A stretch of 64,000 bases of DNA from NCBI GenBank assembly GCA_002347025.1, contig DEAE01000023.1, positions 174,254-238,253 on the forward strand, in the 5' to 3' direction. Below are positions 3,322 through 19,849 of this stretch, one piece after another (position 1 is the stretch's first letter; every line of letters starts with the position of its first letter). The stretch is from Acidobacteria bacterium UBA2990. GTDB lineage: Bacteria; Acidobacteriota; Vicinamibacteria; Vicinamibacterales; UBA8438. Under the pieces are notes generated by a model, which saw nothing but the letters and a program-made list of their open reading frames with translations, did not search any database and was not told the DNA's origin. Position numbers and translations under genes: made by a program.

Positions 3322-3488
3322 AAGGTTAGGACCTCCAAAAGATGTGGTTTAGATAAAACAAGGTGTCGAATGGTAGCCTCGACACCACATGAGGTCAGTA
3401 TACTCGGGTCTGGCGGTAGGTACAAACAAACTCAGGCAACGACTGTAAGACCCAAGGAATGCCAGGGTTGGAATGCCCAAAGCTAGAG

Positions 3489-4445
3489 ATGACTCAGTCT
3501 ATGAATGTTGTCTTTCACTACGAGGCCGGGCCGGGCCTTGAAGCCCAATTGACACGTCTTGAAGCTAAGGGCTTGAAGGTATCGGTGTGCCCGGAGGCTG
3601 ACCACACCCGTTTTGGGGAATTGATGGTAGAAGCGGAGGTTCTGTGGCACCTGCTCGAGCCACTCACTGCGAAGATGATAGCAGCCGCTCCAAAACTACG
3701 CTTGATTCAAAAGATTGGCGTCGGAGTGAATACCATTGATCTTGAGGCGGCCAAGCATCGAGGTATCCCAGTGTGTAATATGCCCGGTACGAACAGTCAG
3801 GCTGTAGCTGAGATGACCTTATTGTTAATGTTGGCGACATTGCGGCGCCTTACTCAGCTCGATGGCGCAACGAGGTCAGGAAAGGGTTGGGCCTTACCCG
3901 CGGCCTGGCAGGATCACTACGGAGAGCTGGCAGGTCGAACGGTAGGTTTGATTGGGTATGGTGCTGTGCCATCTCGACTAGCACCGGTGCTGAAGGCTAT
4001 GGGAGCATCTGTGATCTACGCAAGCCGGACGGCGAAGTCCCAAGCGGTAGGGGAGCGCCGGTCATTGGAGGAATTACTGACAGAAAGCGATCTTGTCTCC
4101 CTGCATGTTCCTCTGACTGCAGGTACGGAAAAGCTTATTAACGCCAAGACCCTTGGCATGATGAAGACTGGAGCGATCATCATCAATTCAGCCAGGGGGG
4201 GTCTTATTGATGAGAAGGCTCTGTGCCATGCGCTCACAGTGGGCCGGGTCGGTGCTGCGGGCCTAGATGTTTTTCCTAAGGAACCGGTGCCAGGGAGTAG
4301 TCCTTTGTTTCAGTTTGAAAATGTTGTTTTAGCTCCCCATGTGGCTTGGTTGACGAACGAGACGATGGAGAGGAGTATCGGTCTAGCTGTGGAGAATTGC
4401 CGTCGTCTGGTTTCTGGAGGTCCACTCTTGCACCAAGTGGTTTAG
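3489..4445 (+). CDS. D-isomer-specific 2-hydroxyacid dehydrogenase, NAD-binding
   Basis: ORF track gives 3459..4445. I prefer ATG 3489 (MTQSMNVVF). Contains GxGxxG (GLIGYGAVPS), ARGGLIDE and the catalytic His block PHVAW. Confidence 0.8.
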   Translation: MTQSMNVVFHYEAGPGLEAQLTRLEAKGLKVSVCPEADHTRFGELMVEAEVLWHLLEPLTAKMIAAAPKLRLIQKIGVGVNTIDLEAAKHRGIPVCNMPGTNSQAVAEMTLLLMLATLRRLTQLDGATRSGKGWALPAAWQDHYGELAGRTVGLIGYGAVPSRLAPVLKAMGASVIYASRTAKSQAVGERRSLEELLTESDLVSLHVPLTAGTEKLINAKTLGMMKTGAIIINSARGGLIDEKALCHALTVGRVGAAGLDVFPKEPVPGSSPLFQFENVVLAPHVAWLTNETMERSIGLAVENCRRLVSGGPLLHQVV

Positions 4446-6060: not shown

Positions 6061-6351
6061 ATGATCGGTGCTGGTGAAATAGTAATTGTCGCGCTCATAG
6101 TTGTCCTGATTGTTATGGCAGGGCGTCGGGGTAATCGACCTACAGGGGAACCAGTTATCGTGGTGGGTTCTCCAAAAAAAGGTCTGCCCCAATCGGTGGT
6201 GACCGGTGGTGGCGCTGTATTGGCCGCGTTGGGTGTGGCCATTACCGCTGAGTTACAGGAATGGCCACCATACATGGGAGCGTTAGCGGCTGGGGTTGCA
6301 GCGGGGCTCGTTGCAACTTGGTTGGCTAGTCGTAATTCTGAGGGTCGCTAA
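6061..6351 (+). CDS. Hypothetical small membrane protein
   Basis: 96-aa ORF in the 380-nt gap between gabD and the RNA methyltransferase. Three hydrophobic stretches (IVIVALIVVLIVMA, GAVLAALGVAITA, LAAGVAAGLVATWLA). No family recognised and the RBS is weak. Confidence 0.35.
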   Translation: MIGAGEIVIVALIVVLIVMAGRRGNRPTGEPVIVVGSPKKGLPQSVVTGGGAVLAALGVAITAELQEWPPYMGALAAGVAAGLVATWLASRNSEGR

Positions 6352-6361
6352 GGGTTGTCGT

Positions 6362-7183
6362 TTAGCCAGATTTTGATGTGGCTTGTGACACGCTGTACAG
6401 GGCAATCCCTACCGTTGTGGCCACATTTAGGGAGTCGATGTCTGGAGCGATCGGGATGTGGACGAGTCGATTGACAAGGTCCGCTGCGGCGTCGCTGAGG
6501 CCGGTACCTTCAGTGCCGAGTATGAGGGCTATCCGGGGGGGAAGGGCCTTAATTAAGGCGCCGAGGCGCTGAGATCCGGAATCAGGTGTTAGGGCTACAG
6601 TAGTGAAGCCGAGTTCTTGGAGTCTTATTAGGCCGCCAGGCCAATCGTGTATCAGTGCATAGGGAATGCGGAGGGTCGCCCCGAGGGAGGTTCTAATCGC
6701 TTTGCGGTAAAGCGGATCCGAGCAGTGTGGGCTAAGCAAGATACATTCGGCCCCAAAGGCTGCTGCGTTCCGAAAAATGCTACCTATGTTGTCTGGATTC
6801 GCGACTTGCTCAAGGACTACCACAAGGCCAGCTGAACGAAGCAGACCAAGCTCCCTGTCGGTTGTCTCATGGGGTCGCTGACCAAGAGCAAGGCAGCCTC
6901 GATGGACATGGAAACCCAGTAGGTTTTGTAGGAGTTGTGGTGAGGCGATATAGATGGGGAACTCATCTAGGCGGTCCTGCAGAAGGTCAGAGAGGCTGTC
7001 GAAGGCCGCTCGGGTCGCTAGAACTGACCGCGTTTGGAGGGTCTGGTGGGTTAGTAGGGTTCTCACCACCAGTCGGCTTTCCGCAACGAATATCCCACGC
7101 TGACGGAGCAAAACTGGGTCCGGAACAGTGTGATAGTCGCCCAATCGTGGGTCCTGAGGATCGTTGACGGGGATAACTGGCAT
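6362..7183 (-). CDS. SpoU/TrmH family RNA 2'-O-methyltransferase
   Basis: ORF track gives 6362..7249. ATG 7183 (MPVIPVND) removes the overlap with the divergent aminotransferase. SpoU blocks NPDNIGSIFRNAAAFG, LILGTEGTGLS and IPI..DIDSLNVA. Confidence 0.8.
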   Translation of the reverse strand: MPVIPVNDPQDPRLGDYHTVPDPVLLRQRGIFVAESRLVVRTLLTHQTLQTRSVLATRAAFDSLSDLLQDRLDEFPIYIASPQLLQNLLGFHVHRGCLALGQRPHETTDRELGLLRSAGLVVVLEQVANPDNIGSIFRNAAAFGAECILLSPHCSDPLYRKAIRTSLGATLRIPYALIHDWPGGLIRLQELGFTTVALTPDSGSQRLGALIKALPPRIALILGTEGTGLSDAAADLVNRLVHIPIAPDIDSLNVATTVGIALYSVSQATSKSG

Positions 7184-7225
7184 TGTGAAACTTGTTATTG
7201 TTTCAGACTGGATAGGATACCTCTG

Positions 7226-8392
7226 ATGGCTGTCTCCTGGTCGACACATTTAGACACGGTTAAGCCGTTTTTGGCGATGGAGGTGATGGAACGTGGCATG
7301 GCGATGTCTCGTGCTGGGGCAGAGGTTGTGCAACTGGGGGTCGGCGAACCTGGGTTTCCACCTCCGCCGGAGGTCGTCCGTGCCGTTACGTCTGCCCTAG
7401 AACAAGGCCACACCCACTATACAGACAGTAGGGGGCTTTATGAGCTGCGTGAGGCGATTTCGAAGGATTGTCTGCATCGCAGAGGAGTTCATGTTAGCCC
7501 AGACCAGATTGTTGTTACCAACGGGTCGTCTCCAGCGCTGTTCTTGGCGATCAATTTGTTGGTGGACCCAGGTGACGAGATTATCATCCTGACACCCCAT
7601 TATCCCTGCTACCCAAATCTTGTTGCGGTCTGTGGAGGAGTCCCGGTCTTTGTGCCGACTTCCCCTGGCGACGGATATCTGGCCGATGTGGCAGGGGTAA
7701 AACGGGCGGTTACGAACCGAACAAAAGGGATTTTAATTGCTTCGCCAGCAAATCCTACCGGGGCTGTGCAGCCACCTGAAGTAATGGAGGCCCTGGTCCA
7801 GCTCGGCGTTCCGGTGCTGGCTGATGAAGTCTATGATGGCCTACTTTATGATCAAGCCGTGAATACCTCTCCATTGGCTTTTTCAGAGGAATGTTTTGTT
7901 TTCGATGGGTTTTCGAAACGGTATGCCATGACCGGTTTTCGACTGGGGTATGTCATCGCCCCGAGTACCGCCATTCGGCGATTAGTCTCCCTCCAACAGA
8001 ATTTGTTTATCTCGGCTGGTCACTTTGTTCAAACAGCGGCATTGGCTGCTCTGGTGCATGGTAGGGCTCATCTGGAGATGATGGTTGGTGAGTACGCCCA
8101 GCGGAGGGCGCGGCTGGTTGCAGGGGTTCGGAACCTGGGGCTCTCAGTACCGGTCAAGCCGTTAGGAGCTTTCTATGTACTGGCCGACGCGAGGCATTTG
8201 GGTCAAGACTCTCTGGCGTTGGCGTTCGAGATCCTCGAGCGGGCCCATGTTGCACTAGGGCCAGGTCGAGACTTTGGGGAAATTGCTGAAGGCTTCTTGA
8301 GGTTTTCTTTTGCTGCACCGGTAGATGCTATAGACCGCGCAATGGAGCAGTTACATAAGGCATGGCCATCGATCAGCCGAATGTCTAAATAG
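7226..8392 (+). CDS. Class I/II (fold-type I) PLP-dependent aminotransferase
   Basis: ORF track gives 7130..8392. I prefer ATG 7226 (MAVSW). Blocks NGSSPAL, ASPANPTG, PLP-lysine block FSKRYAMTGFRLGY, and C-terminal LRFSFA. Confidence 0.8.
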   Translation: MAVSWSTHLDTVKPFLAMEVMERGMAMSRAGAEVVQLGVGEPGFPPPPEVVRAVTSALEQGHTHYTDSRGLYELREAISKDCLHRRGVHVSPDQIVVTNGSSPALFLAINLLVDPGDEIIILTPHYPCYPNLVAVCGGVPVFVPTSPGDGYLADVAGVKRAVTNRTKGILIASPANPTGAVQPPEVMEALVQLGVPVLADEVYDGLLYDQAVNTSPLAFSEECFVFDGFSKRYAMTGFRLGYVIAPSTAIRRLVSLQQNLFISAGHFVQTAALAALVHGRAHLEMMVGEYAQRRARLVAGVRNLGLSVPVKPLGAFYVLADARHLGQDSLALAFEILERAHVALGPGRDFGEIAEGFLRFSFAAPVDAIDRAMEQLHKAWPSISRMSK

Positions 8393-8414
8393 GTGGTGAT
8401 CACCTTGGGAGGGC

Positions 8415-9074
8415 ATGGACATGGTGCAGACATTGAATTTAGGGCGTCGAATCGAACTGCACTCGATGGACGCACATTGTCAAGGTGTGTCGTTAGCACT
8501 GTATAGGTGGGAGGTGGAAGGCCGACCGAGGTTTCTGGTCCACACTTATAGCTCGGTGCAAGGGGCCAGGGAGCGTGTCGAGTTTATCCAGGAAGCCCTC
8601 CAGGTCACTCTTGGAATGCAAACCACCGATGCTCCGGCAGAGGCAGAAAGGATGAGCCCGCAAAGTTGGCTTCAATTTCCCTGTCGTTCGGATCATCTGA
8701 GGGCTTTGAAGCGCTCTTTTCTCGATGTGTGCAAGTTGGAGACGGGTGCCCCCTTGGTGGCTAAGCCTTTAACCGTATTTGATAAGAAGGCTGACGGTGA
8801 GATAGAAGCATTGAGCCGTGGCTCCGGTCTCTATGAGATCCGAACTGTAGGCGGGGTTGTGTCAAGGAGGACAACAGTAATCGCTCAGGGTTTTGCGAAG
8901 CTCTGTGAGATGAAGATCATTGAGGATGATCACCAAGTGGTTTTTCCCTGTAAGACGTCCCACGACGCGATGGTTGGGATGTTGATGTTTCGGGCACAGA
9001 ATGTTCGAGGAACGGTGAAAGAAGAGGAGATGTCGGCAACCCGTGGCGTCCTGTCTGCCCCGAGCCAGCAGTGA
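8415..9074 (+). CDS. Hypothetical protein, internally duplicated, FPCxxxH motif x2 (unrecognised family)
   Basis: 219-aa ORF (ATG 8415 or 8421; GGGAGGG at 8406-8412). It starts 22 nt after the aminotransferase stop and ends 10 nt before the next gene. The two halves align by eye: LYRWEVEG...QFPCRSDH versus LYEIRTVGG...VFPCKTSH. Confidence 0.6.
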   Translation: MDMVQTLNLGRRIELHSMDAHCQGVSLALYRWEVEGRPRFLVHTYSSVQGARERVEFIQEALQVTLGMQTTDAPAEAERMSPQSWLQFPCRSDHLRALKRSFLDVCKLETGAPLVAKPLTVFDKKADGEIEALSRGSGLYEIRTVGGVVSRRTTVIAQGFAKLCEMKIIEDDHQVVFPCKTSHDAMVGMLMFRAQNVRGTVKEEEMSATRGVLSAPSQQ

Positions 9075-9084
9075 CGGGTGCTCT

Positions 9085-10146
9085 ATGGGAGTCCAGGAAA
9101 CTATGGAAAAGTCAATGACTAGCCGTGAGCGCGTTTTGGCTGCGCTAAGCCGTGAGCCTGTTGATCGAACGCCCTGTTGTAATCCGACCTCCTTGGCTAC
9201 TGTCGAGTTGATGGACCTTGTGGATGCGAGGTTTCCCGATGCGAATCGTAAAGGGGAGCAAATGGCCCGCCTTGCTGCGACAGGTTATACGGAACTGGGT
9301 TTCGACTCTGTCATGCCGGTGTTTTCGATTATCCAGGAGTCATCGGCGCTGGGTTGCCTGATGCAATGGGAGGGTAAGGACAACTGGCCGACGGTCAAGA
9401 TGAGCCAGCCGATTTGGAGGGAGCCAGACGATATCAGTATTCCCTCGAATTTTTTGACCCACCCAGATACCCAATGTGTCCTGGAGGCGATCAGGATACT
9501 GAAGAAGGAATTTGGAGAAGAGGTGGCGGTCATCGGTAAAACGATGGGACCGTGGTCGCTGGGATACCACTGCTTCGGGGTTGAGCGTTTCCTGCTGATG
9601 TCCCATGACGATCCCGGTAAGACGATGGTCTGCCTCGACAAGATGAAAGAATCGACAATTCTATTCGGTCAGGCTCAGATTGAAGCGGGGGCAGATGCTT
9701 TGACGCTACCAGATCATGCGACAGGAGATTTGGTGAGTGGTGAGTACTATGAGCGGTTTCTGCGGGAAATGCACACCGAATTTGCCGCAATGCTTGCGGT
9801 TCCGCTCATTCTCCATATTTGTGGCAGAACCGTAGATCGAATGGATGGAATTGCAAGGACAGGAATGGCGGCGTTTCATTTCGACTCTAAGAACCGGCCC
9901 CAAGAGTCGATGGAAGTGGTGGATTCGAGAATTGCTCTCGTGGGGAACATCAATAATCCAGAAACTCTGTTTGCTCGGAGTCCTGAAGAAGTCCGTGTTG
10001 AGGTGCGAGAAAACCTGGACGCAGGTGTCCAGCTGATTGCCCCGGAATGTGCGATTCCTTTGCAGACCTCTATCGAGAATTTGAAGGCGATTCCTGAGTC
10101 AGTCCGTGAATGGCATCGAGAGAAAGCAGTTTCTGTCGGATCATGA
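9085..10146 (+). CDS. URO-D superfamily corrinoid methyltransferase (MtaA/MtbA/CmuA-like)
   Basis: ORF track gives 9043..10146. The start is probably among ATG 9085, 9103 and 9115. MtaA-like N-terminus (SRERVLAALSREPVDRTP). It lacks the HemE MRQAGR block. Zinc-ligand pattern HxC (ILHICG) plus a downstream Cys (APECAIP). Confidence 0.75.
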   Translation: MGVQETMEKSMTSRERVLAALSREPVDRTPCCNPTSLATVELMDLVDARFPDANRKGEQMARLAATGYTELGFDSVMPVFSIIQESSALGCLMQWEGKDNWPTVKMSQPIWREPDDISIPSNFLTHPDTQCVLEAIRILKKEFGEEVAVIGKTMGPWSLGYHCFGVERFLLMSHDDPGKTMVCLDKMKESTILFGQAQIEAGADALTLPDHATGDLVSGEYYERFLREMHTEFAAMLAVPLILHICGRTVDRMDGIARTGMAAFHFDSKNRPQESMEVVDSRIALVGNINNPETLFARSPEEVRVEVRENLDAGVQLIAPECAIPLQTSIENLKAIPESVREWHREKAVSVGS

Positions 10147-11021
10147 GTAAGTTCCTCGATCGTGTTAAAGGCGGAGAACTCTTGGTTTCGGATGGAGCCA
10201 CAGGTACCTATCTGCAAGAACATGGGCTGCCTCCAGGGGGGTGTCCTGAGGAGTTTAATTGGAGCCACCCGAATGTTGTTCAAGGGATGGCCGCCGAGTA
10301 TTTTGCGGCCGGGTCTGATTTAGTGCTCACCAATTCATTTGGTGGAAGCCGCTATCGACTAAAAGAATACGGCTTAGGCGACAGGGTGGTTGAGTTGAAC
10401 CGGCTGGCTGCAGACCATGCTCGAACTGTGGCGCCCGTTGAGGGCTTTGTGCTTGGTTCGATTGGTCCGACCGGCGTTTTGCTGGAGCCAAATGGACCAG
10501 CTACCGAAGAGGAGATGTTTAGTGCATTTTGTGAACAGGTGAAGGGATTGAGCGAGGGAGGAGTGGATGGATTTTGCATCGAAACGATGTTTGATCTGGC
10601 CGAGATGAATCTTGCTATTAGGGCGGTCAAAGACCGGACTTCTCTGCCAGTTGTAGCGACTATGGTCTTCGATAAGGGTCCTAAAGGTTACTTCACGATG
10701 ATGGGGCTTCGGCCGGGTCGGGTGGCTGAGGAACTAGCCGGGGTAGGTGCAGATGTTATTGGTTCAAACTGCGGCTTAGCGATTGGACACATGGTAGAGA
10801 TTGTGACCGCGATGCGAGCGGCGAGCGTGCTGCCGATTCTCACCCATGTGAACGCTGGTATTCCAGAGATCAAAAAAACGGCTATTGTGTACCCAGATAG
10901 TCCTGAATTCATGGCTGAAGAGATGGTGAATATCATTGAAGCAGGTGCCAACATTGTCGGTGGTTGCTGTGGAACCTCGCCTGAATATATTCGGGCGTTT
11001 GCAAGGCGTTACAAATCCTGA
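10143..11021 (+). CDS. Homocysteine S-methyltransferase domain protein (MetH Hcy-module / BHMT / MmuM-like)
   Basis: ORF track gives 10110..11021. ATG 10143 overlaps the upstream stop (ATGA 10143-10146). Blocks LVSDGATGT and LTNSFGG. Zinc cysteines GSNCG and GGCCGTSPEYI. Confidence 0.8.
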   Translation: MSKFLDRVKGGELLVSDGATGTYLQEHGLPPGGCPEEFNWSHPNVVQGMAAEYFAAGSDLVLTNSFGGSRYRLKEYGLGDRVVELNRLAADHARTVAPVEGFVLGSIGPTGVLLEPNGPATEEEMFSAFCEQVKGLSEGGVDGFCIETMFDLAEMNLAIRAVKDRTSLPVVATMVFDKGPKGYFTMMGLRPGRVAEELAGVGADVIGSNCGLAIGHMVEIVTAMRAASVLPILTHVNAGIPEIKKTAIVYPDSPEFMAEEMVNIIEAGANIVGGCCGTSPEYIRAFARRYKS

Positions 11022-11035
11022 GGATTCGGTGCCCT

Positions 11036-11797
11036 ATGGCAGAGTTAGTTGACCTTCAGAATAAGTTCCTCCGGGATGAGCTCGGGGAATACGTTGAAGA
11101 AGAGGCCGAGCGCCAGAGGATGGTCGATCTCTATGCGGAGACAAAGCTTTCAATGCAGAACATTGCCGCAGCGATTATCGACGGTCGCCATCATGATGTG
11201 GATCGCCTCACCCGCGAGGCGATCGACGATGACGTCCAAGCTCTTGAGGTGATGGATGACGGTCTGATCGCAGGTATGGCCCTAGTGGGAATAAAATTCA
11301 GGGACAATTTCATCTTTGTGCCAGAAGTGCTTGCATGTGCGCGGGCGATGAAGGCGGGAATGGCGCACATCGAGCCCATTTTGTCTGCGTCTGGGATTGA
11401 TCCCATTGGCAAGGTCATTATGGGTACGGTGAAGGGGGACCTTCACGATATTGGTAAGAACTTGTGCATCATGATGTTACGAGGAGCCGGCTTTAAAGTT
11501 GTCGACCTGGGTGTCGACACCTCTCCAGATGACTTTCTCGAAGCTGTTGAAGAGCACGGCGCGAATCTTGTGGGTATGTCGGCATTGCTCACAACCACTA
11601 TGCCTAATATGGGGCGAACTATCGAGGCCTTCATTGACGCAGACCTCAGAGATGATGTGAAGGTTATGGTGGGAGGAGCTCCGGTTACCCCTGAGTTCGC
11701 TGACGATATGGGGGCCGACGCCTACGGCGCCGATGCGGTGGAGTGTGTAGAAATAGCTAAACGACTGACTGAGGAGAGTGCCTCGGCACACCAGTGA
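11036..11797 (+). CDS. Corrinoid (cobalamin-binding) methyl-carrier protein
   Basis: 253-aa ORF. A helical cap region is followed by a Rossmann domain with DxHxxG (GDLHDIGKN), SALLTTT and MVGGAP blocks, as in MtaC/MtbC and the MetH B12 domain. Confidence 0.85.
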   Translation: MAELVDLQNKFLRDELGEYVEEEAERQRMVDLYAETKLSMQNIAAAIIDGRHHDVDRLTREAIDDDVQALEVMDDGLIAGMALVGIKFRDNFIFVPEVLACARAMKAGMAHIEPILSASGIDPIGKVIMGTVKGDLHDIGKNLCIMMLRGAGFKVVDLGVDTSPDDFLEAVEEHGANLVGMSALLTTTMPNMGRTIEAFIDADLRDDVKVMVGGAPVTPEFADDMGADAYGADAVECVEIAKRLTEESASAHQ

Positions 11798-13737
11798 GTG
11801 ACAGAAAAGCTAGCGGTGATCGTAATTTCATAGACCGGGCAGGCTACGAGAAGAGTCTCCGCCGACTCGGTGACATATTCCAGGGGATTACGAGACACGC
11901 CAAAAAACAGGCCCTACAACGCTGCCCTTATAAAGATAGACACGACTGCTGCACAGCGCAATTTGCTTGCGCTTATAAGCGCGTGGCATCTGTAGTATCA
12001 GACCTTCCGAATTGTGTTAGCGATGACCAACTCGATTATCGGACGGCGTGGGAGACTGATGTGGGTGATGTTCAAGCGATGAAAGGCAAGTTCCTCTCAT
12101 CATCGGGTCAACCTGGCAATGTGGAGTTCAATGGTCGATTGTGTGCTTTGAGAGTTGGGAAGACGATTTTCGATCACGCAGACGAGTTGAGGGTCAAAGT
12201 GCCGACCTCCTGCGGACGTGTGGGTACCTGTCACGAATGTGTTGTCCAGATTAGAAAAGGGGACGAGGCATTGAGGGCTAGGTCTGATGCTGAAGCATTC
12301 CTTCAGGGTGATTATCGTCTGGCCTGTCAAGCTGTGGTTGAGCAGGAAAATCAGGAGATAGCCTTTGATCTGTTGCGTCGTGAACCTAAGATTCTGCTCT
12401 CTCAAGAGTCACGGGCCGTAGATGTGGACCCAATGGTGCACCGGCAAGGTGACAAGGTTTATTACGGTAGCGAGGAGCTTGACCGCTATCGCGGCCACCT
12501 GTACGGCGTCGCTCTGGATCTCGGTACCACAACCGTGGTGCTTGAATTGGTGAACCTGGAGACCGGTCAATCAGTTCACGTCGAATCGTTCGAGAACCCC
12601 CAGCGGTTCGGTGGTAGTGACATTATGACCCGCATAAGTTACGACGGTGGTGAGCACAAAGGGGAACTGCACACGGCCATCGTTAATACGTTCAACACGG
12701 TTGTAAGGGAGTTCTGCGCGAAGCTGGGAGTGAGCCGTCACGAGATCTACGAGATTCTCGTGGTAGGGAATACGACTATGCGCGATCTTTTTTTCGGACT
12801 GGATGTTCAGTCGATTGGTCAAAAGCCATACAGGTCAAATGTGGAGGAGGAACACCTCCGTGGTGTCAGAAAGTCCACGGGTCTTCGAGAGTCAGCCAGA
12901 CAACTGAAATTAATGGCAAACAGGAATGCTGTTGTCTGTGGAGTGCCTCTCATAGGAAGCCACGTGGGTGGGGATATCGTAGCGGACCTCGTAGCAATTG
13001 ATATGGTGAGCCGACGAGAACCCGTCATGCTTGTCGATGTGGGTACGAACACCGAGGTGGTGCTTGGCTATGCTGGCCGTCTTATGGCGGCCTCGTGTCC
13101 AGCAGGTCCAGCGTTTGAGGGTGGTTTGGTACGTTTTGGAATGCCAGGTTGTGAAGGTGCTGTCGAATCAGTCCGATACAGGGATGGCAAGTTTTGCTGC
13201 GAGACTATAGGTGAAGGTGAACCCGAAGGGATCTGTGGGTCGGGTTTCATTGATCTCCTTGCTGAACTACGCCGTGCGAATTTAATGACGCCAAAAGGGG
13301 TGTTCCCGGATAAAGCAGTGGAAGTTCAAGTGGTTCAGGAACGCGGAATCACTTTGTCACGACAAGACGTCAGTGAACTGGCTCAGGCGAAGGCCGCTAG
13401 TTTCTGTGGTCAGGCGATTTTGATGCGCCAGTTCGGTGTGAGCCCGGACGAAATCAGCCAGATGTTTCTGTCTGGAGGGTTCGTAAATTATGTTGAGGTC
13501 GCCTCCGCTGTTGACATTGGCTTCCTGGCACCGGTAAACGAGGATCGCGTGATCAAAGTTGGTAATGCGGCCGCTCAGGGGGCCCGTGAAATGTTGCTTT
13601 CAAGAAAAAAACGTTCCGAGATAGCTGAACTGATCTCGAGGGTAGAGCATGTGGAACTCGAAACTACCGAGGATTTTTTTGAGATGTTTGTGGAAGGCTG
13701 TCAATTTAAACCGATGAACTGCCAGTCTTTGTGGTGA
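11794..13737 (+). CDS. Reductive activase of corrinoid proteins (RACo/RamA-like: [2Fe-2S] ferredoxin + ASKHA/DUF4445 ATPase)
   Basis: 647-aa ORF. GTG 11794 overlaps the upstream stop (GTGA). Ferredoxin module SCGRVGTCHEC...LACQ. ASKHA-type blocks ALDLGTTTV, VDVGTNTE and GICGSG. About 95 extra Cys-rich N-terminal residues. An alternative start is ATG 12079. Confidence 0.75.
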   Translation: MSDRKASGDRNFIDRAGYEKSLRRLGDIFQGITRHAKKQALQRCPYKDRHDCCTAQFACAYKRVASVVSDLPNCVSDDQLDYRTAWETDVGDVQAMKGKFLSSSGQPGNVEFNGRLCALRVGKTIFDHADELRVKVPTSCGRVGTCHECVVQIRKGDEALRARSDAEAFLQGDYRLACQAVVEQENQEIAFDLLRREPKILLSQESRAVDVDPMVHRQGDKVYYGSEELDRYRGHLYGVALDLGTTTVVLELVNLETGQSVHVESFENPQRFGGSDIMTRISYDGGEHKGELHTAIVNTFNTVVREFCAKLGVSRHEIYEILVVGNTTMRDLFFGLDVQSIGQKPYRSNVEEEHLRGVRKSTGLRESARQLKLMANRNAVVCGVPLIGSHVGGDIVADLVAIDMVSRREPVMLVDVGTNTEVVLGYAGRLMAASCPAGPAFEGGLVRFGMPGCEGAVESVRYRDGKFCCETIGEGEPEGICGSGFIDLLAELRRANLMTPKGVFPDKAVEVQVVQERGITLSRQDVSELAQAKAASFCGQAILMRQFGVSPDEISQMFLSGGFVNYVEVASAVDIGFLAPVNEDRVIKVGNAAAQGAREMLLSRKKRSEIAELISRVEHVELETTEDFFEMFVEGCQFKPMNCQSLW

Positions 13738-14593: not shown

Positions 14594-15952
14594 TTACTGT
14601 TGGGCAATTCGGTAGAGCGTGGAAACAGTGCGGACAATCAGGCTCCCGTGTGCGATAGCTGGAGTTGCGAGGGTCCACTCGTTTAGAGAGTTCGTGCCGA
14701 GAAGCTCGAATTCTGGACCGGCTTTAACAACATACGTATCGCCATCTTCACTGATGTTAAAGATCTTGCCATTGTAGGCCCATGGTGATGCAGTGAATAG
14801 CGAACCTCCTGGGGATACGCGAACTCGAGAGTAGACCTCTTCACCGCTATGAGCGTCATGGCAGATCAAAATACCCCTATCCAACCAGGTGTAGTGGTAG
14901 TTCCCGTAGACCAAGGCTGAGGGGTTGTAAGAACCAAGTTGTGGATGAGACCAGACGACGAAGTCGTTGCTGGTGGTTCCTGGCGATAAGGTGATGTCTC
15001 CACCCGCACCAGGGCGGATGGCGTAAACGGGCCGATTCGAGTCGGCAGTGTAACCGGAATTTATATAGAGCAGACCATGTTGCGCGAATGGGGTCGCCAC
15101 ATGGATGGACGACATGCCATCAAGCCCCCATAGGGACCGACCGTTAAGGTCGTAGGCTCTAACTCCCCCTCTCCCAGTCGTGACCACTTCAGTGCGAAGC
15201 TCATTTTGCCAAATGAATGGTGTAGACCAGTTTGAAGCCTCGTCCCGTTCCACTCGCCAGAGTTCCCTTCCGGTTTTGGTATCGTGGGCAGCTAAGAAGG
15301 ATTGTTCAAGGTTGTCATTAACAAGAAATAACTGGTTTTCGTAGATGGCCGGGGAGGACGCTGTGCCCCAGTCTTCTCGCATGGGATAGAGCTCGACGGG
15401 TTGCTCCCAGAGCTGAGAGCCTTCGAAATTAAAGGCGTAGAGACCCGCGTAGCCGAGGTAGACGTAGACGTTTTCACCATCGGTTACCGGGGTTTCAGAT
15501 GCGTAACTGTTTTTTTCGTGTTTTGAACCAGGCATGGCAGTGTGCAGGGTGCGTTGCCAGCGAATTTGTCCTGTGGAAAAGTCGATATCGTAGAGAACCC
15601 AACGAAGGGGCGACGACGGGGTCTCGAGGTTGGACCCTGTCATGGGGCCGTCAAACGACCTCGATTGATACTGATCCAGAGGCTTGAGTGGTGTTTCGAC
15701 TCCACTTGTATTGATTGCTGATGTAACGAAGATGTGGTCGCCTGAGACGATTGGGGAGCTCCAGGAACGACCAGGTATATTGAGTTGCCACACTATGTTA
15801 TCTGTTGGTCCCCAGCGATCGGGTAGGGTGGAGTGGTCTGCGGCAGTGCCGCCCTCTAGACCGCGGAATTGAGGCCACTCGGTTTGGGCATGGAGACTGT
15901 CAATCGTTGCCCATATGACGACGACCGAAAGCACGACTCGATGAAATTGCAT
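14594..15952 (-). CDS. PQQ-like/BamB-like beta-propeller repeat protein, exported
   Basis: ORF track gives 14594..15982. ATG 15952 is preceded by AGGAG. Signal peptide, then the WPQFRG start typical of this repeat family, then repeated propeller blades. It lacks the quinoprotein-dehydrogenase VHHxxWDYD block. Confidence 0.65.
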   Translation of the reverse strand: MQFHRVVLSVVVIWATIDSLHAQTEWPQFRGLEGGTAADHSTLPDRWGPTDNIVWQLNIPGRSWSSPIVSGDHIFVTSAINTSGVETPLKPLDQYQSRSFDGPMTGSNLETPSSPLRWVLYDIDFSTGQIRWQRTLHTAMPGSKHEKNSYASETPVTDGENVYVYLGYAGLYAFNFEGSQLWEQPVELYPMREDWGTASSPAIYENQLFLVNDNLEQSFLAAHDTKTGRELWRVERDEASNWSTPFIWQNELRTEVVTTGRGGVRAYDLNGRSLWGLDGMSSIHVATPFAQHGLLYINSGYTADSNRPVYAIRPGAGGDITLSPGTTSNDFVVWSHPQLGSYNPSALVYGNYHYTWLDRGILICHDAHSGEEVYSRVRVSPGGSLFTASPWAYNGKIFNISEDGDTYVVKAGPEFELLGTNSLNEWTLATPAIAHGSLIVRTVSTLYRIAQQ

Positions 15953-16019
15953 CAATTTCTCCTGGTTGATGGCCGCTTCCATCAGGATATATTACGCTGT
16001 CGAAGGAGTGTGAGAAGAG

Positions 16020-16790
16020 ATGACCCATTGGATTAGATTTGAACAGGATGGACAAACTGGATTTGGGGTTCTGACTAACCAGACGATTGCAGTCTACACG
16101 GGAGATATGTTTGGTGCCTCGACGCCCACCGGAGACACCCTTGACCTCGGAGGTGTGACCCTGTTGCCTCCAACAGTCGCCAGCAAGATGGTGGCGTTGT
16201 GGAACAATTCCCGCGCGATGGCGGCCAAGATGGATCAAGTGGAGCCGTCGGAACCCCTGTATTTCATCAAGGCGAATGGTTCATACCTTGGTTCAGGAGG
16301 GGTGATCCGAAAGCCCCACAATTACGACGGCAAAGTGGTGTTTGAGGGCGAGCTCGGTATCGTAATTGGTAAGCAGTGTCGGGCCGTTAGTGAGTCTGAG
16401 AGCGGTACGTACATTTTTGGCTACACGTGTGTCAATGACGTCACGGCTGTTGGTATCCTCGGGAAAGATCCATCATTCAAGCAATGGACCCGGGCAAAAA
16501 GCTTCGATACTTTTGGTGTTGTCGGCCCGGTCGTAGTCACAGGCCTCGACCCGACGAACTTGGTTGTCCGGACGGTCCTAAACGGACAGGAACGTCAGAA
16601 CTATCCAACTAGCGATTTGTTTTTCCAACCGGCAACGATCGTGAGTCTAATCTCCCAGGATATGACTTTGTTTCCAGGCGATGTTATCTGCTGTGGTACA
16701 TCAGTAGGTGTTGGATCAATGAAACCAGGTAGCAGCGTCGAAATCATCATAGACAATATCGGAACGCTGCGTAACCAATATCAAGACTAG
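16020..16790 (+). CDS. Fumarylacetoacetate hydrolase (FAH) family protein
   Basis: 256-aa ORF. Blocks YFIKA, FEGELGIVIG, CVNDVTA and LFPGDVI of the FAH / 2-keto-4-pentenoate hydratase fold. Confidence 0.85.
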   Translation: MTHWIRFEQDGQTGFGVLTNQTIAVYTGDMFGASTPTGDTLDLGGVTLLPPTVASKMVALWNNSRAMAAKMDQVEPSEPLYFIKANGSYLGSGGVIRKPHNYDGKVVFEGELGIVIGKQCRAVSESESGTYIFGYTCVNDVTAVGILGKDPSFKQWTRAKSFDTFGVVGPVVVTGLDPTNLVVRTVLNGQERQNYPTSDLFFQPATIVSLISQDMTLFPGDVICCGTSVGVGSMKPGSSVEIIIDNIGTLRNQYQD

Positions 16791-18029
16791 GTGGAGTCCA
16801 GCATGAAGCCCATTCGGGAAATATCGATTGGTAGAAAGATACTGCGGTTTGCTTGTTTCTTAATGATGGCGGTACTGCTAGACGGACACCGAGAGAGCCC
16901 AGTGAAAGCCATGTCTGCACAGGCAGTCGATGAGGTCCCTCAGTTCGAATACGACCCAAGTTGGCCGGCTCGACCGTTGCCGAACAATTGGATATTGGGT
17001 GAGGTCGGGGGTATTAGTGTGGACGCCCAAGGGCATATTTGGGCTATTCATCGCCCATGGACTGTTACAGGTCGAGAGCTGGGTGCTGTTGAAGGGGGGG
17101 CAGCCTGTTGTCGACCGGCTCCCTCAATTATTGAGTTTGATCAAGCCGGAGATGTAGTGCAGGCGTGGCCTGAATTGCAGCAGTTTGAGGCGGCCCCAGG
17201 AACCCCAGCGGGACAGGGTAATCGAGTGGGCCCAAATGGGGCGATGCTGTGGGAGTCTCAGCCTGGGGTTTATGGAGAATGGGGTCGGAGGGAACATACC
17301 GTGTATGTCGACCATACCGATCACGTGTGGGTGAGCAATGATGAGTCACAGGTGTTGTATAAATTCACCCGCGCGGGAAGGCATGTTTTAACCATTGGAG
17401 AGCGAGGGGTTACTGGTGGTAGTAATGACCCTGAGCATCTAGGTCGTCCGGCTGGATTGGTGCTAGACCCAGAAACGAACGAGCTGTTTGTTGCCGACGG
17501 ATATACCAACAAACGAGTGATCGTGTTTGACGCAAACACCGGTGAGTATCGGAGGCATTGGGGAGCCTACGGAAACCGGCCAAGGGATGCTGATTTGGGT
17601 CGTTACGATCCGAACGCAACCCCGTCGAGTCAGTTTAGGGGGCCGGTTCATGGGATTGCGCTATCTCACGATGGCTTCCTGTATGTGACAGATCGTTCGG
17701 CTAATAGAGTGCAGGTGTTTCTTCGGGATGGGGCATTCGTGCAGGAAGGTTTTATCGCGACTGGAACCAGAGATTTGGGTACCGCTTATGGGGTGGCCTT
17801 ATCGCACGATGTTGAACAGCGTTGGGTTTACATTAATGACGGCTCCAACAACACAATTTGGATTCTCCGACGTGACACTCTTGAGACGGTCGGGCAGTTT
17901 GGTTCTTATGGTCGGCAAGGGGGACAGTTGCTATCAGCCCATAGTATGGCGGTTGACCAGCTGGGAAACATTTATGTGGGCGAAACCCGTGGGCGACGAG
18001 TACAACGCTTCCGGCTCGTCAATCCTTGA
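16791..18029 (+). CDS. NHL-repeat six-bladed propeller protein (peptidyl-alpha-hydroxyglycine lyase-like), exported
   Basis: 412-aa ORF. GTG 16791 abuts the FAH stop (TAG GTG); the alternative is ATG 16803. Hydrophobic signal or anchor (ILRFACFLMMAVLL). NHL blades LFVADGYTNKRVIVFD, LYVTDRSANRVQVF and IYVGETRGRRVQRF. Confidence 0.7.
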   Translation: MESSMKPIREISIGRKILRFACFLMMAVLLDGHRESPVKAMSAQAVDEVPQFEYDPSWPARPLPNNWILGEVGGISVDAQGHIWAIHRPWTVTGRELGAVEGGAACCRPAPSIIEFDQAGDVVQAWPELQQFEAAPGTPAGQGNRVGPNGAMLWESQPGVYGEWGRREHTVYVDHTDHVWVSNDESQVLYKFTRAGRHVLTIGERGVTGGSNDPEHLGRPAGLVLDPETNELFVADGYTNKRVIVFDANTGEYRRHWGAYGNRPRDADLGRYDPNATPSSQFRGPVHGIALSHDGFLYVTDRSANRVQVFLRDGAFVQEGFIATGTRDLGTAYGVALSHDVEQRWVYINDGSNNTIWILRRDTLETVGQFGSYGRQGGQLLSAHSMAVDQLGNIYVGETRGRRVQRFRLVNP

Positions 18030-18127
18030 TCAACCGTGTGGCGATATCTCGTTCGACCACGAGTGATCATTGAGGCTGAGGGGTTTTATGAAGCTTGCCC
18101 TAGTGCTTTTCGATGATCGGAGTGTTC

Positions 18128-19849
18128 TCAAGGAAGGCCTTGATCGAGAGGCGTATCGAACAGCAATATCTGGGCCTGTTCGATAAGGTTGCGAAGGCCG
18201 ATCCGGTTCAGGGCTGACACTGCAACGCCATTGTGCCTTCTGGCCAGGGCCGTGCCAATGCCTGGTGGGAGTCGGTCTATCTGATTGAAGACAAGAAGTT
18301 CTGGAATGTCTGCCAGACCGATACCCGAAAGAACACGGCGCACTATTTCCATGCGGCGCTCGATGTCCTGTTCGGTTGCATCAACCACGTGGAGCAACAG
18401 GTCCGCGTCTTGGAGCTCTTCCAGGGTCGCGTGAAATGCTGCAACTAGGTCTTCTGGAAGATCCCGAATGAAGCCGACGGTATCGGTTATCACTACCTCC
18501 CGATCGCGTGGGACCCGGAGGCGCCTGGATGTGGGATCGAGGGTCGCAAAAAGGCGATCAGCTACTAGCACATCTGTGCGCGTCAGACTGCGCAACAAGG
18601 TGCTTTTTCCGGCGTTTGTGTAGCCGACGATAGACAGAGTGGGAACGTTGCGCCTGCGCCTCTGTTTCCGCCTCGATTCCCGCTGGAGGCGTAATTGTGC
18701 CAACTCCCGCTCTAATCGGTTGATACGGTCGCGGACTCTCCGGCGGTCAACTTCGAGCTTGCTTTCCCCGGGACCACGTCCTCCGATTCCCCCTGCAAGC
18801 CTAGAGAGGGATAGGTCGCCCCGCTGCGCCAGTCGGGGTAGTCGGTAACGCAGCTGAGCTAGTTCGACTTGTAACTTCCCATCGCGAGTAGTGGCGCGCT
18901 GGGCGAAGATGTCGAGAATTAACTGGGTTCGGTCGATTACTCGAAGTTCCAAGCGCTCCGCGAGATTTCGTGCCTGGACAGGCGTGAGGTTTTGATCGAA
19001 GATGACTAGGTCGACATTGCTTTGGAATGCGTCGATGACCAGGTCGCGGAGGCGTCCAGAGCCTATCAGATAGCGTGGGTCTATGTGGGTTCGACGCTGA
19101 CTCAATACATCCACGACGTCTACGTCTGCCGATTGGGCTAGTTCCCTGAGCTCCTGCAATTGGGCGTCGGTTTCGGCCTTGCTGCGCCCTGCGGTTACGG
19201 ATACGAGAATGGCCCCTTCGCCAGAGGTCACTTTGCTCCCGTGGACGTGTCTAGCAAACAGGTCTTCTCGGTCTTGGATCCATTGGCGAAAGTCGAAGTC
19301 TATTTGTGAAGGCGGCTTGGAGGGTAGCCGCTCAATGGGGTTCTCTCCTTTTGCTGCCGGTCGAAGTGCTGCTATATGAGCGACACTTGGTAGTCCGTTA
19401 TCGTCGGTTGTAAGGGCGACCATAGCGTCCAGTCGTAGAATGGCGAGGTCAGTGAGGTCGTCTCGACTAAGAGGCTCTATCCCGACGTGGCTATGTATAC
19501 AGCGGAATCCACGCAGGCGCCCATGGCCAGCGCGGATGCGTCCCCAGTCAGGCATTTCCAGACTTCTGGCGTCCCCGACCATGACGTGAGTGACCATCCC
19601 TCGGCGGTCCACCAGTACGCCCAATTGTCGACCGGTTTCATGGGTCCACCCACATATTTCGCGGGCTAGCTCTTGGGTAACTAATCGTTCAGGAGGCAAA
19701 CGGCGACGGCTGAGTCGGTCTAAGCGCCTTAGGTAGCTCGTCTTTAGGCCTTGGGTATTACCGAAAATGCCGATGGAATCCTCCAGAGAGCGATTGGGCG
19801 TCGAAGCCCGTGACCAGCGTGGTAGTTCTAGTGCTGTCAGTGGGGCCAT
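18128..19849 (-). CDS. hflX: GTPase HflX (long N-terminal form)
   Basis: 573-aa ORF. G1 motif GYTNAGKSTL, G3 motif DTVGF, G4-like NQID. The preceding HflX-type glycine-rich and coiled region (GGIGGRGPGESKLE) is diagnostic. Confidence 0.85.
   Translation of the reverse strand: MAPLTALELPRWSRASTPNRSLEDSIGIFGNTQGLKTSYLRRLDRLSRRRLPPERLVTQELAREICGWTHETGRQLGVLVDRRGMVTHVMVGDARSLEMPDWGRIRAGHGRLRGFRCIHSHVGIEPLSRDDLTDLAILRLDAMVALTTDDNGLPSVAHIAALRPAAKGENPIERLPSKPPSQIDFDFRQWIQDREDLFARHVHGSKVTSGEGAILVSVTAGRSKAETDAQLQELRELAQSADVDVVDVLSQRRTHIDPRYLIGSGRLRDLVIDAFQSNVDLVIFDQNLTPVQARNLAERLELRVIDRTQLILDIFAQRATTRDGKLQVELAQLRYRLPRLAQRGDLSLSRLAGGIGGRGPGESKLEVDRRRVRDRINRLERELAQLRLQRESRRKQRRRRNVPTLSIVGYTNAGKSTLLRSLTRTDVLVADRLFATLDPTSRRLRVPRDREVVITDTVGFIRDLPEDLVAAFHATLEELQDADLLLHVVDATEQDIERRMEIVRRVLSGIGLADIPELLVFNQIDRLPPGIGTALARRHNGVAVSALNRIGLRNLIEQAQILLFDTPLDQGLP

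Follow-up and report, generated by a model that had tools for sequence, protein, structure and literature searches.

A widespread five-gene corrinoid methyl-transfer cluster with an MtaA/CmuA-family methyltransferase and a partner protein of no recognized family

The stretch of 64,000 nucleotides (nt) from contig DEAE01000023.1 of Acidobacteria bacterium UBA2990 (hereafter, the window) carries six co-directional open reading frames (ORFs), g1 to g6, at positions 7226 to 13737. The functional unit consists of five of these genes, g2 to g6, rather than all six. Its g3 product, a zinc methyltransferase of the uroporphyrinogen decarboxylase (URO-D) fold, is accompanied by a homocysteine (Hcy) methyltransferase module, a corrinoid carrier, and a reductive activase. 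The newest component, g2, belongs to no recognized family and is the obligate partner encoded upstream of URO-D. We give about an even chance to the reading that URO-D and g2 together load the corrinoid from a non-folate methyl donor and that homocysteine and/or tetrahydrofolate (THF) unload it. The genes are as follows.

7226 to 8392, plus strand: g1, class I/II aminotransferase (Pfam Aminotran_1_2)
8415 to 9074, plus strand: g2, duplicated-domain protein (no family match)
9085 to 10146, plus strand: g3, MtaA/CmuA-family (URO-D fold) zinc methyltransferase, 353 aa, as judged from sequence (PF01208)
10143 to 11021, plus strand: g4, stand-alone homocysteine-binding S-methyltransferase module (PF02574)
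11036 to 11797, plus strand: g5, corrinoid (B12) carrier with cap and Rossmann domains, 253 aa (PF02607 and PF02310)
11794 to 13737, plus strand: g6, RACo/RamA-type ATP-dependent reductive activase (Fer2, Raco_middle, and RACo_C_ter)
11830 to 12057, plus strand: Cys-rich module of about 80 aa, fused to the N terminus of g6 (no Pfam match)

The unit is defined by its conservation. A search with the URO-D alignment against one genome per species matched at least 568 genomes, and a metagenome search anchored on g4 matched at least 430 contigs; this distribution includes dominant sponge symbionts and deep-ocean planctomycetes. The six proteins of the window were mapped onto the best 80 of the genome loci, and the best 80 metagenome loci were mapped as well. 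The synteny of the cluster in these two sets is far beyond chance. Among the genome loci, g2 lies upstream of the URO-D gene in all 80, usually abutting it (a RuvC gene intervenes in some Poribacteria and a cupin-domain gene in two Phycisphaerae). The corrinoid protein follows URO-D in 42 loci and is then usually followed by the activase. Other companions are methylenetetrahydrofolate reductase (MTHFR) near the URO-D gene (25 loci), a divergent FadR-type GntR regulator (25 loci), a pterin-binding methyltransferase (PF00809; 21 loci), a second, distantly related Hcy methyltransferase (7 loci), and the window-type Hcy methyltransferase g4, which in 6 planctomycete loci is located between the URO-D and corrinoid genes; the aminotransferase g1 is present in none of the 80. 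These loci come from Planctomycetota, Poribacteria, Latescibacterota, Gemmatimonadota, Acidobacteriota, Verrucomicrobiota, Lentisphaeria, and one metagenome-assembled genome (MAG) of Rhodospirillaceae, and the closest orthologues among the listed matches are from MAGs labelled Planctomycetota, Fuerstiella, and Planctomycetaceae.

The metagenome loci show the same linkage from the side of g4, which is flanked by the URO-D and/or corrinoid gene in 75 of the 80; the remaining 5 contigs stop within about 0.7 kb downstream of g4. Thus, g4 orthologues with 56 to 98% identity adjoin one or both of these genes wherever flanking sequence exists. These 75 loci bear out the proposal in the original prediction that URO-D, the Hcy methyltransferase, the corrinoid protein, and the RACo-type activase are conserved together, except that the co-conserved set is a quintet that includes g2 and not a quartet. 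A distant low-GC marine lineage has the order Hcy methyltransferase, g2, URO-D, corrinoid protein, a 79-aa ORF, RACo, and 2-hydroxyacid dehydrogenase, and its cluster sits in a housekeeping neighborhood. Across phyla (loci L005 to L084), identity to the window proteins is 75 to 80% for URO-D (over about eight phyla), 68 to 78% for the corrinoid protein where it is present, about 57 to 63% for the activase, and 38 to 57% for g2, a pattern that suggests horizontal spread together with very strong constraint on the methyltransferase-carrier pair. URO-D and g2 are found alone in 38 of the 80 genome loci, mostly in Poribacteria, and at least 31 of these have at least 3.8 kb of downstream flank; when a corrinoid protein was sought for such genomes, the top 120 homologues of the corrinoid protein included no Poribacteria chromosome.

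Direct reading of the sequence confirmed the six genes, gaps, and two start/stop overlaps that had been described for this region, with the same coordinates. The stop codon of g1 (TAG, 8390 to 8392) is separated by a 22-nt gap, which holds a Shine-Dalgarno-like run (GGGAGGG), from the ATG of g2 at 8415; g2 stops at 9074, 10 nt before the ATG of g3 at 9085; g3 and g4 overlap by ATGA (10143 to 10146); g4 stops at 11021, 14 nt before the ATG of g5 at 11036; and g5 and g6 overlap by GTGA (11794 to 11797). Two of the starts are ambiguous: sequences identical to g2 are called elsewhere from the second Met, at 8421 (217 aa), and g3 is called elsewhere six codons downstream, at 9103 (347 aa), and in both genes conservation sets in near the later start. 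A promoter scan returned zero plus-strand promoter-like sites inside the operon, the sole plus-strand terminator-like match (13379 to 13396, inside g6) is within shuffle expectation, and promoter and terminator matches in the operon as a whole are no more numerous than in shuffled sequence. No cobalamin or S-adenosylmethionine (SAM) riboswitch, or any other Rfam family, was found in the window or in seven related loci, and a permissive Rfam scan of positions 6200 to 9200 was also empty. As to the proteins, Pfam and NCBIfam agree with all the domain calls of the original prediction, and its zinc-site and cofactor-motif calls are upheld by the alignments to the structures 4AY7 and 1Q7M and by a check of the DxHxxG motif, as described below. 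Two distinct methyltransferases, g3 and g4, flank one corrinoid carrier, g5, with the activase g6 coming next, as in a three-component corrinoid methyltransferase system.

The g3 protein matches PF01208 with an E value of 1.2e-63 and scores above the curated cut-offs of PRK06252 (260.3 bits; cut-off, 244) and TIGR01463 (245.6 bits; cut-off, 235.4), but it stays under the equivalog cut-offs of MtaA_Meth (237.7 of 400 bits) and MtbA (196.9 of 600 bits). By these profile scores, it is a member of the MtaA/CmuA family and not MtaA or MtbA proper, so in these phyla the annotation “MtaA/CmuA family methyltransferase” should not be read as methanol or coenzyme M metabolism. Its alignment with Methanosarcina mazei MtaA (PDB ID 4AY7; E, 7e-51) places H244, C246, and C322 on the HxC...C residues of that structure, which we take to be its zinc ligands, and all three are invariant in a 10-sequence cross-phylum alignment. 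Searching a plasmid collection with g3 gave URO-D/HemE matches at only 24 to 26% identity and no CmuA, and the PDB search did not detect CdmB or the O-demethylase methyltransferase I (MTI) proteins as sequence relatives of g3.

The g2 protein (219 aa from the first start, 217 aa from the second) has no match in Pfam or NCBIfam, including in Pfam scans of its most distant homologues, and a profile search against PDB sequences was empty. A link to DUF1638 was considered, and the Pfam scan of g2 was negative. The family comprises 252 representatives at an E value of 1e-3 or lower among 1.8 billion clustered proteins; full-length members have about 210 aa, the remainder are fragments plus a few longer calls, and those with a source name are annotated as “hypothetical.” The internal duplication proposed for this protein is real: hhalign relates the two halves with a probability of 91% and an E value of 1.1e-6, and their predicted secondary structure repeats. 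In the AlphaFold2 model (pLDDT, 90.1; pTM, 0.84), the repeated unit is beta3-alpha-beta2-alpha, and a Foldseek comparison of the model with the PDB returned nothing at an E value of 1e-3 or lower (best E, 0.22; TM below 0.25). In a 44-sequence alignment, each half carries an invariant C-x3-H motif (C88/H92 and C177/H181), several Arg and Gly residues are likewise invariant, and the C-terminal tail (...RGVLSAPSQQ) is conserved. The two C-x3-H motifs persist even in the low-GC lineage, in which g2 identity drops to 20%. From the model and these residues, g2 would be a pseudo-symmetric two-domain protein with a metal site of the Cys2His2 type. The description of g2 as unrecognized stands in that it has no relatives in these databases, but it gave too little weight to a protein that is the most constant partner of URO-D and that tracks URO-D rather than the activase. 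A compact, conserved family with a probable metal site and a tie to a B12 methyltransferase lends itself well to structural and biochemical study.

The three remaining proteins are more familiar. The g4 protein belongs to S-methyl_trans (PF02574; E, 3e-60) and aligns over its full length with the Hcy module of Thermotoga maritima MetH (1Q7M; E, 2.5e-42), being nearer to MetH than to BHMT (1LT7; E, 1e-17). Its C210, C275, and C276 fall on C207, C272, and C273 of 1Q7M, presumably the zinc ligands of that module, and are invariant in the g4 alignment. The g5 protein combines B12-binding_2 (PF02607; E, 3.6e-19) with B12-binding (PF02310; E, 4.7e-29) and has DxHxxG at residue 135, the base-off/His-on form; its best NCBIfam matches are corrinoid proteins of the MtgC and MtbC types, ahead of the MetH B12 domain, and its orthologues are 70 to 88% identical. 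The g6 protein has the [2Fe-2S], middle, and ASKHA domains of the activases (Fer2, 3.7e-7; Raco_middle, 2.4e-44; RACo_C_ter, 1.8e-64) and is AcsV-like in NCBIfam (286 bits). Residues 13 to 88 of g6 form the Cys-rich module, C-x7-CC-x5-C-x14-C (CPYK...CC...C...C), which has no Pfam match and is homologous, with 41% identity, to the 79-aa ORF of the low-GC locus L085 (10492 to 10731). In many lineages, the module is a separate small ORF directly upstream of the Fer2-RACo gene (as in L085 and in L071, 11826 to 12131), and none of the 40 loci with an activase lacks it in one form or the other.

The relation of the cluster to folate differs between architectures. A tblastn search of the 64-kb window for the four pterin-binding proteins of related loci, for MTHFR, and for the folate-binding region of MetH found no homologue, so the pterin module is indeed absent from the window, as originally reported. 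The flanks of window-type units vary; the flanking ORFs scanned in three of them (L005, L006, and L165) are unrelated genes with no other methyltransferase, and nearly all window-type units have no pterin-binding or MTHFR gene in the available surrounding sequence. In loci that have the corrinoid protein and activase without g4, the activase is typically followed by MTHFR and then by a PF00809 protein of roughly 350 aa, of the methyl-THF:corrinoid methyltransferase type. This MTHFR is a long form of about 530 aa, PF02219 plus PF12225/DUF5981 (“MTHFR C-terminal”), and scores poorly against the standard MetF equivalogs (L013, 13715 to 15295, and 24 other loci). These loci read, after a divergent GntR gene, g2-UROD-Cor-RACo-MTHFR-Pterin_bind, with or without the second Hcy methyltransferase, which in its 7 loci is 26 to 30% identical to g4; the 25 loci in which a FadR-type GntR gene sits upstream of g2 in divergent orientation belong to several phyla. 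MTHFR and Pterin_bind also occur in some g4-type operons (L111, L135, and L155).

These loci bear on the claim that URO-D had taken the slot of the folate module. An adjacent pterin gene in orthologous loci had been named beforehand as evidence against that claim, and the same operon holds a PF00809 methyltransferase in 21 related loci and MTHFR in 25; URO-D is therefore not a general stand-in for the folate module but a third methyltransferase on the shared corrinoid carrier. In one Acidobacteriota MAG (L080), a full-length MetH of 1228 aa (15212 to 18895, minus strand) is encoded beside a GntR|g2-UROD-Cor-RACo-Pterin cluster, which thus does not replace MetH in this genome.

In the relay that we propose, g3 with its obligate partner g2 would take a methyl group from a non-folate donor, X-CH3, and place it on Co(I) of the g5 corrinoid protein; g4 would hand the methyl to zinc-activated homocysteine to yield methionine; and g6, with its Cys-rich N-terminal module, would re-reduce accidental Co(II) at the expense of ATP. 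In other phyla, the core of g2, URO-D, corrinoid protein, and activase would be unloaded instead, or also, to THF by the pterin-binding methyltransferase, followed by MTHFR, often under the divergent FadR-type GntR regulator. By analogy, the system would work as a bacterial demethylation system composed of MTI, corrinoid protein (CoP), methyltransferase II (MTII), and activase, with methionine and/or the folate one-carbon (C1) pool as the sink. Three elements of this scheme are inferred: which way methyl flows through URO-D, that g2 takes part in catalysis, and that the donor is not a folate. Were URO-D a non-folate loader, the window-type unit (also in the low-GC gene order), the Cor-RACo-MTHFR-Pterin loci, and the latter with a second Hcy methyltransferase would all be complete. 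As a CH3-THF loader, it would complete the window-type unit, leave the pterin loci redundant and sinkless, and be redundant where the second Hcy methyltransferase is present; as a thiol unloader, it would complete both other architectures and leave the window-type unit with two sinks and no loader. Only the role of a non-folate loader leaves all four main architectures complete and non-redundant, and this role is therefore favored. Moreover, since no other methyltransferase was found in the flanks of the three window-type loci scanned, URO-D is the sole candidate for loading their corrinoid, and since two Hcy methyltransferase subfamilies occur at different positions in one core, methionine appears to be a recurrent output. 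The relay from a non-folate donor to homocysteine in the original prediction is thus still the most parsimonious reading, and what has fallen away is URO-D as the replacement of the folate module.

Several observations weigh against a loading role. Thirty-eight loci show only g2-UROD; the 75 to 80% cross-phylum identity and the housekeeping neighborhood in the low-GC lineage look more like those of a core biosynthetic enzyme than those of a catabolic enzyme with a specific substrate; and the best-characterized members of the family, MtaA and MtbA, unload a methyl-corrinoid to a thiol rather than load it. Nine related loci have MTHFR and no pterin-binding gene in the available flank, which fits a folate link for URO-D itself. 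The absence of a pterin gene covers the 64 kb of the window, not the whole genome, and the case for loading is drawn from sequence and synteny.

Some of these points would be explained if URO-D with g2 were a non-orthologous CH3-THF (or other methyl-pterin):corrinoid methyltransferase, that is, if the window unit were a variant split MetH, an ordinary folate- and B12-dependent methionine synthase made from different parts. Such a variant would account for the wide occurrence and high conservation of window-type units despite their lack of a pterin gene, with one lineage having them amid housekeeping genes, and for MTHFR directly after the activase in 25 loci, including the 9 whose flanks, as far as sequence is available, lack a pterin gene; g4, g5, and g6 also have counterparts in the published split MetH (PMC5764234). 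However, a PF00809 methyltransferase shares the operon with URO-D and g2 in the 21 related loci and is present even in some window-type operons (L111 and L155), where two enzymes would then serve one step. Nor do we know of any requirement for a Zn(His,Cys,Cys) site in the activation of CH3-THF. In the literature, URO-D-fold enzymes are described as MTIs for methanol, halomethanes, and methoxy-aromatics and pterin-binding proteins as the THF-dependent MTIIs (PMC9768040, PMC13222342), although no systematic search was made for a folate-using URO-D member. On balance, we consider a folate-loaded variant unlikely.

Alternatively, URO-D could be the sink, moving methyl from the corrinoid to a zinc-activated small thiol or to a cysteine of g2, with CH3-THF as the methyl source via the pterin-binding methyltransferase. 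The closest characterized relative of g3 and its best family models are methylcobamide:coenzyme M methyltransferases, its zinc ligands are intact, g2 has invariant Cys and His residues, and loci of the type MTHFR-Pterin-Cor-RACo-UROD without an Hcy methyltransferase would amount to a complete route from CH2-THF to a methyl-thiol. In window-type units, however, both URO-D and the Hcy methyltransferase would then be sinks with nothing to load the corrinoid, and no loader was found among the ORFs scanned in the varied flanks of three loci. No genes for biosynthesis of coenzyme M or a dedicated thiol cofactor were seen nearby, and the flanks contain no recurrent gene family for a thiol pathway. 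We regard this sink role as about equally unlikely. Finally, the g2-URO-D pair and the split-MetH genes could be mere neighbors, or the pair could serve corrinoid handling or repair. The 38 of 80 loci with g2-UROD and no corrinoid or activase gene nearby would agree with this, and there is a precedent in the uncharacterized DUF1638 protein that is needed for the split MetH of Phaeobacter (PMC5764234). Mere proximity is difficult to square with the conserved gene order, the start/stop overlaps and 10- to 22-nt gaps in the window, the linkage of Cor-RACo to g2-UROD in 42 genome loci, and the linkage of g4 to URO-D and/or the corrinoid gene in every g4-anchored locus with enough flank, including the lineage with the 20%-identical g2; and g2 tracks URO-D, not the activase. 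This last explanation appears the least likely of the three.

If URO-D and g2 do load the corrinoid from a non-folate donor, there are a few indications of what the donor might be. Zinc is found in CmuA. Some O-demethylases also contain it, whereas CdmB functions without zinc (PMC13222342); the intact zinc site of g3 therefore does not discriminate between donors. The divergent regulator in 25 loci is of the FadR type, in which GntR regulators usually sense carboxylates. In two Phycisphaerae MAGs (L036, 2609 to 9964, and L040), a complete ATP-binding cassette importer of the SBP_bac_5 (Opp/Dpp) type, with permeases, binding protein, and ATPase, ends one base before g2 and offers a possible handle on the substrate. 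The Phycisphaerae gene that separates g2 from URO-D has a cupin domain as its sole Pfam match; the N-terminal region of its product looks XRE/helix-turn-helix-like by eye, and the protein is a probable regulator. A dimethylsulfoniopropionate (DMSP)-lyase-like enzyme was rejected for it on account of this apparently DNA-binding region. Taken together, the regulator and the importer, both lineage specific, hint weakly that the donor is an imported and non-volatile S- or O-methyl compound, probably with a carboxylate group, rather than a methyl halide or dimethyl sulfide (DMS).

A more specific version of the loading model, which we hold tentatively and would place somewhat below an even chance, is that g2 and the MtaA/CmuA-type enzyme make up an unrecognized two-protein methyl-donor:corrinoid methyltransferase, with which aerobic marine and sponge bacteria would strip methyl groups from an abundant environmental compound and pass them into methionine, independently of folate, and into the folate C1 pool; g2 would then be a new fold whose Cys2His2-type metal site is needed for the chemistry. 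Candidate donors in this case are methylmercaptopropionate (MMPA), DMS, methanethiol, an S- or O-methylated acid or peptide, and a methyl halide.

The aminotransferase g1 (Aminotran_1_2; E, 1.3e-57) reaches the cut-off of no NCBIfam equivalog and had been counted as part of the system. None of the 80 genome loci has an orthologue next to the cluster; g1 recurs solely in the two closest relatives, L088 (98% identity) and, as fragments, L089, and is a co-directional neighbor outside the conserved system. In L089 (5599 to 6179), the aminotransferase upstream of g2 consists of three short fragments in different ORFs with 56 to 67% identity, whereas the cluster genes there are 79 to 88% identical to those of the window; it may be a decaying gene, which fits the position of g1 outside the system. 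A D-2-hydroxyacid dehydrogenase (phosphoglycerate dehydrogenase- or glyoxylate reductase-like) is encoded at 3459 to 4445, and the same type directly follows the activase in the low-GC lineage (L085, 12369 to 13367) and is found near the cluster in about 12 loci, including L155, L161, L162, L165, and some Poribacteria (L072, 8128 to 9150). At about 12 loci in total, it was judged lineage specific and rejected as a system component, although it may be linked to the demethylation product or to serine/C1 supply.

Elsewhere in the window, a cytochrome P460 gene is located at its start (about 6 to 626), a PSD/PSCyt (DUF1592-type) and HXXSHH (DUF1552) pair typical of Planctomycetes at 55787 to 59553, and several pyrroloquinoline quinone (PQQ)-propeller, NHL, and ankyrin-repeat proteins are scattered over it. 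GC skew is positive in all 2-kb bins from 1 to 64000, mostly 0.1 to 0.2, AT skew is mostly negative, and the large ORFs are mostly on the plus strand. The cumulative skew climbs monotonically, which places the whole window on one replichore with unusually strong strand asymmetry.

Full-text literature searches did not turn up a description of the cluster. Methyl relays over corrinoid proteins belong to the textbook chemistry of methanogens and acetogens. As kinds of system, the corrinoid relay and split MetH are known. The novelty lies in the pairing with an MtaA/CmuA-type enzyme, in the g2 family and the Cys-rich module of the activase, and in the very wide distribution among aerobic marine and sponge bacteria, in which, to our knowledge, corrinoid relays have barely been described beyond the cmu pathway and split MetH. 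If URO-D and g2 load from an environmental methyl compound, the cluster would provide a new route to methionine that bypasses methyl-folate and a new biological sink for a marine methylated compound. Leisingera, for example, degrades methyl halides without cmu genes, a sink that is still unassigned (PMC4197683).

The closest published counterpart of the window unit is the three-part split MetH with a RamA-like (Fer2 plus DUF4445) activase for which there is genetic evidence from Phaeobacter inhibens and Desulfovibrio (Price et al. 2018, PMC5764234). That MetH can exist as separate polypeptides with RACo in place of the AdoMet domain, which had been put forward for the window, is therefore not new, and g4, g5, and g6 correspond to three of the four parts of that system: a PF02574 Hcy methyltransferase encoded on its own (in the window, its site is of the Zn(Cys)3 type), a free-standing corrinoid protein that has cap and B12-binding domains and MtbC-like annotation, and ATP-dependent reactivation by a RACo/RamA-type protein, which is required in Phaeobacter. 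The difference lies in the fourth part. Phaeobacter has a PF00809 protein and DUF1638 without URO-D or g2, whereas in the window the PF00809 module is missing from the operon and from the 64 kb, and URO-D and g2 are present.

The Cmu system of aerobic methylotrophs (CmuA, CmuB, MetF2, FolD, and PurU) shares with the cluster an MtaA/CmuA-family enzyme that loads a corrinoid, as we propose for g3, and hosts that are not strict anaerobes; with the related loci, it shares a second methyltransferase to THF and a dedicated MTHFR paralogue in the cluster, MetF2 in the cmu pathway (PMC4197683). CmuA is, however, a fusion of methyltransferase and corrinoid domains, whereas the window, like the related loci in which both occur, encodes g3 and g5 as separate ORFs, and Cmu has no Hcy methyltransferase, no RACo in its core, and no g2. 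Members of the MtaA/CmuA family and other enzymes of the URO-D fold have been established or proposed as MTIs that act on chloromethane, dichloromethane, and methoxy-aromatics (PMC9768040, PMC13222342). Among them are MecE, the MtaA/CmuA-family MTI of the mec cassette for dichloromethane (PMC9768040), and the URO-D-fold MTI of the Cdm system for chloromethane, reported in 2026 (PMC13222342). The GntR-type related loci share the layout of such MTI-CoP-MTII-activase systems (PMC9768040, PMC13222342), as the anaerobic mec, Cdm, O-demethylase, and MtgABC systems each combine a substrate-specific MTI, a small corrinoid protein, a THF-dependent MTII (MecF of mec is termed pterin-binding, and CdmA of Cdm is 59% identical to MtqA), and a RACE-type activase. 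Unlike the cluster described here, these are found in strict anaerobes, deliver methyl to THF only, and have no Hcy methyltransferase or g2-like protein, and CdmB lacks zinc whereas g3 has the full HxC...C site. The closest characterized relatives of g3 itself are the methanogen enzymes MtaA and MtbA and the thioether-using MtsA and MtpA, with which it shares the TIM barrel, the zinc ligands, and a cognate small corrinoid protein; it differs from MtaA and MtbA in scoring well under their equivalog cut-offs, in its bacterial hosts, which show no sign of coenzyme M metabolism, and in the direction proposed for it, which would be loading of the corrinoid and not unloading.

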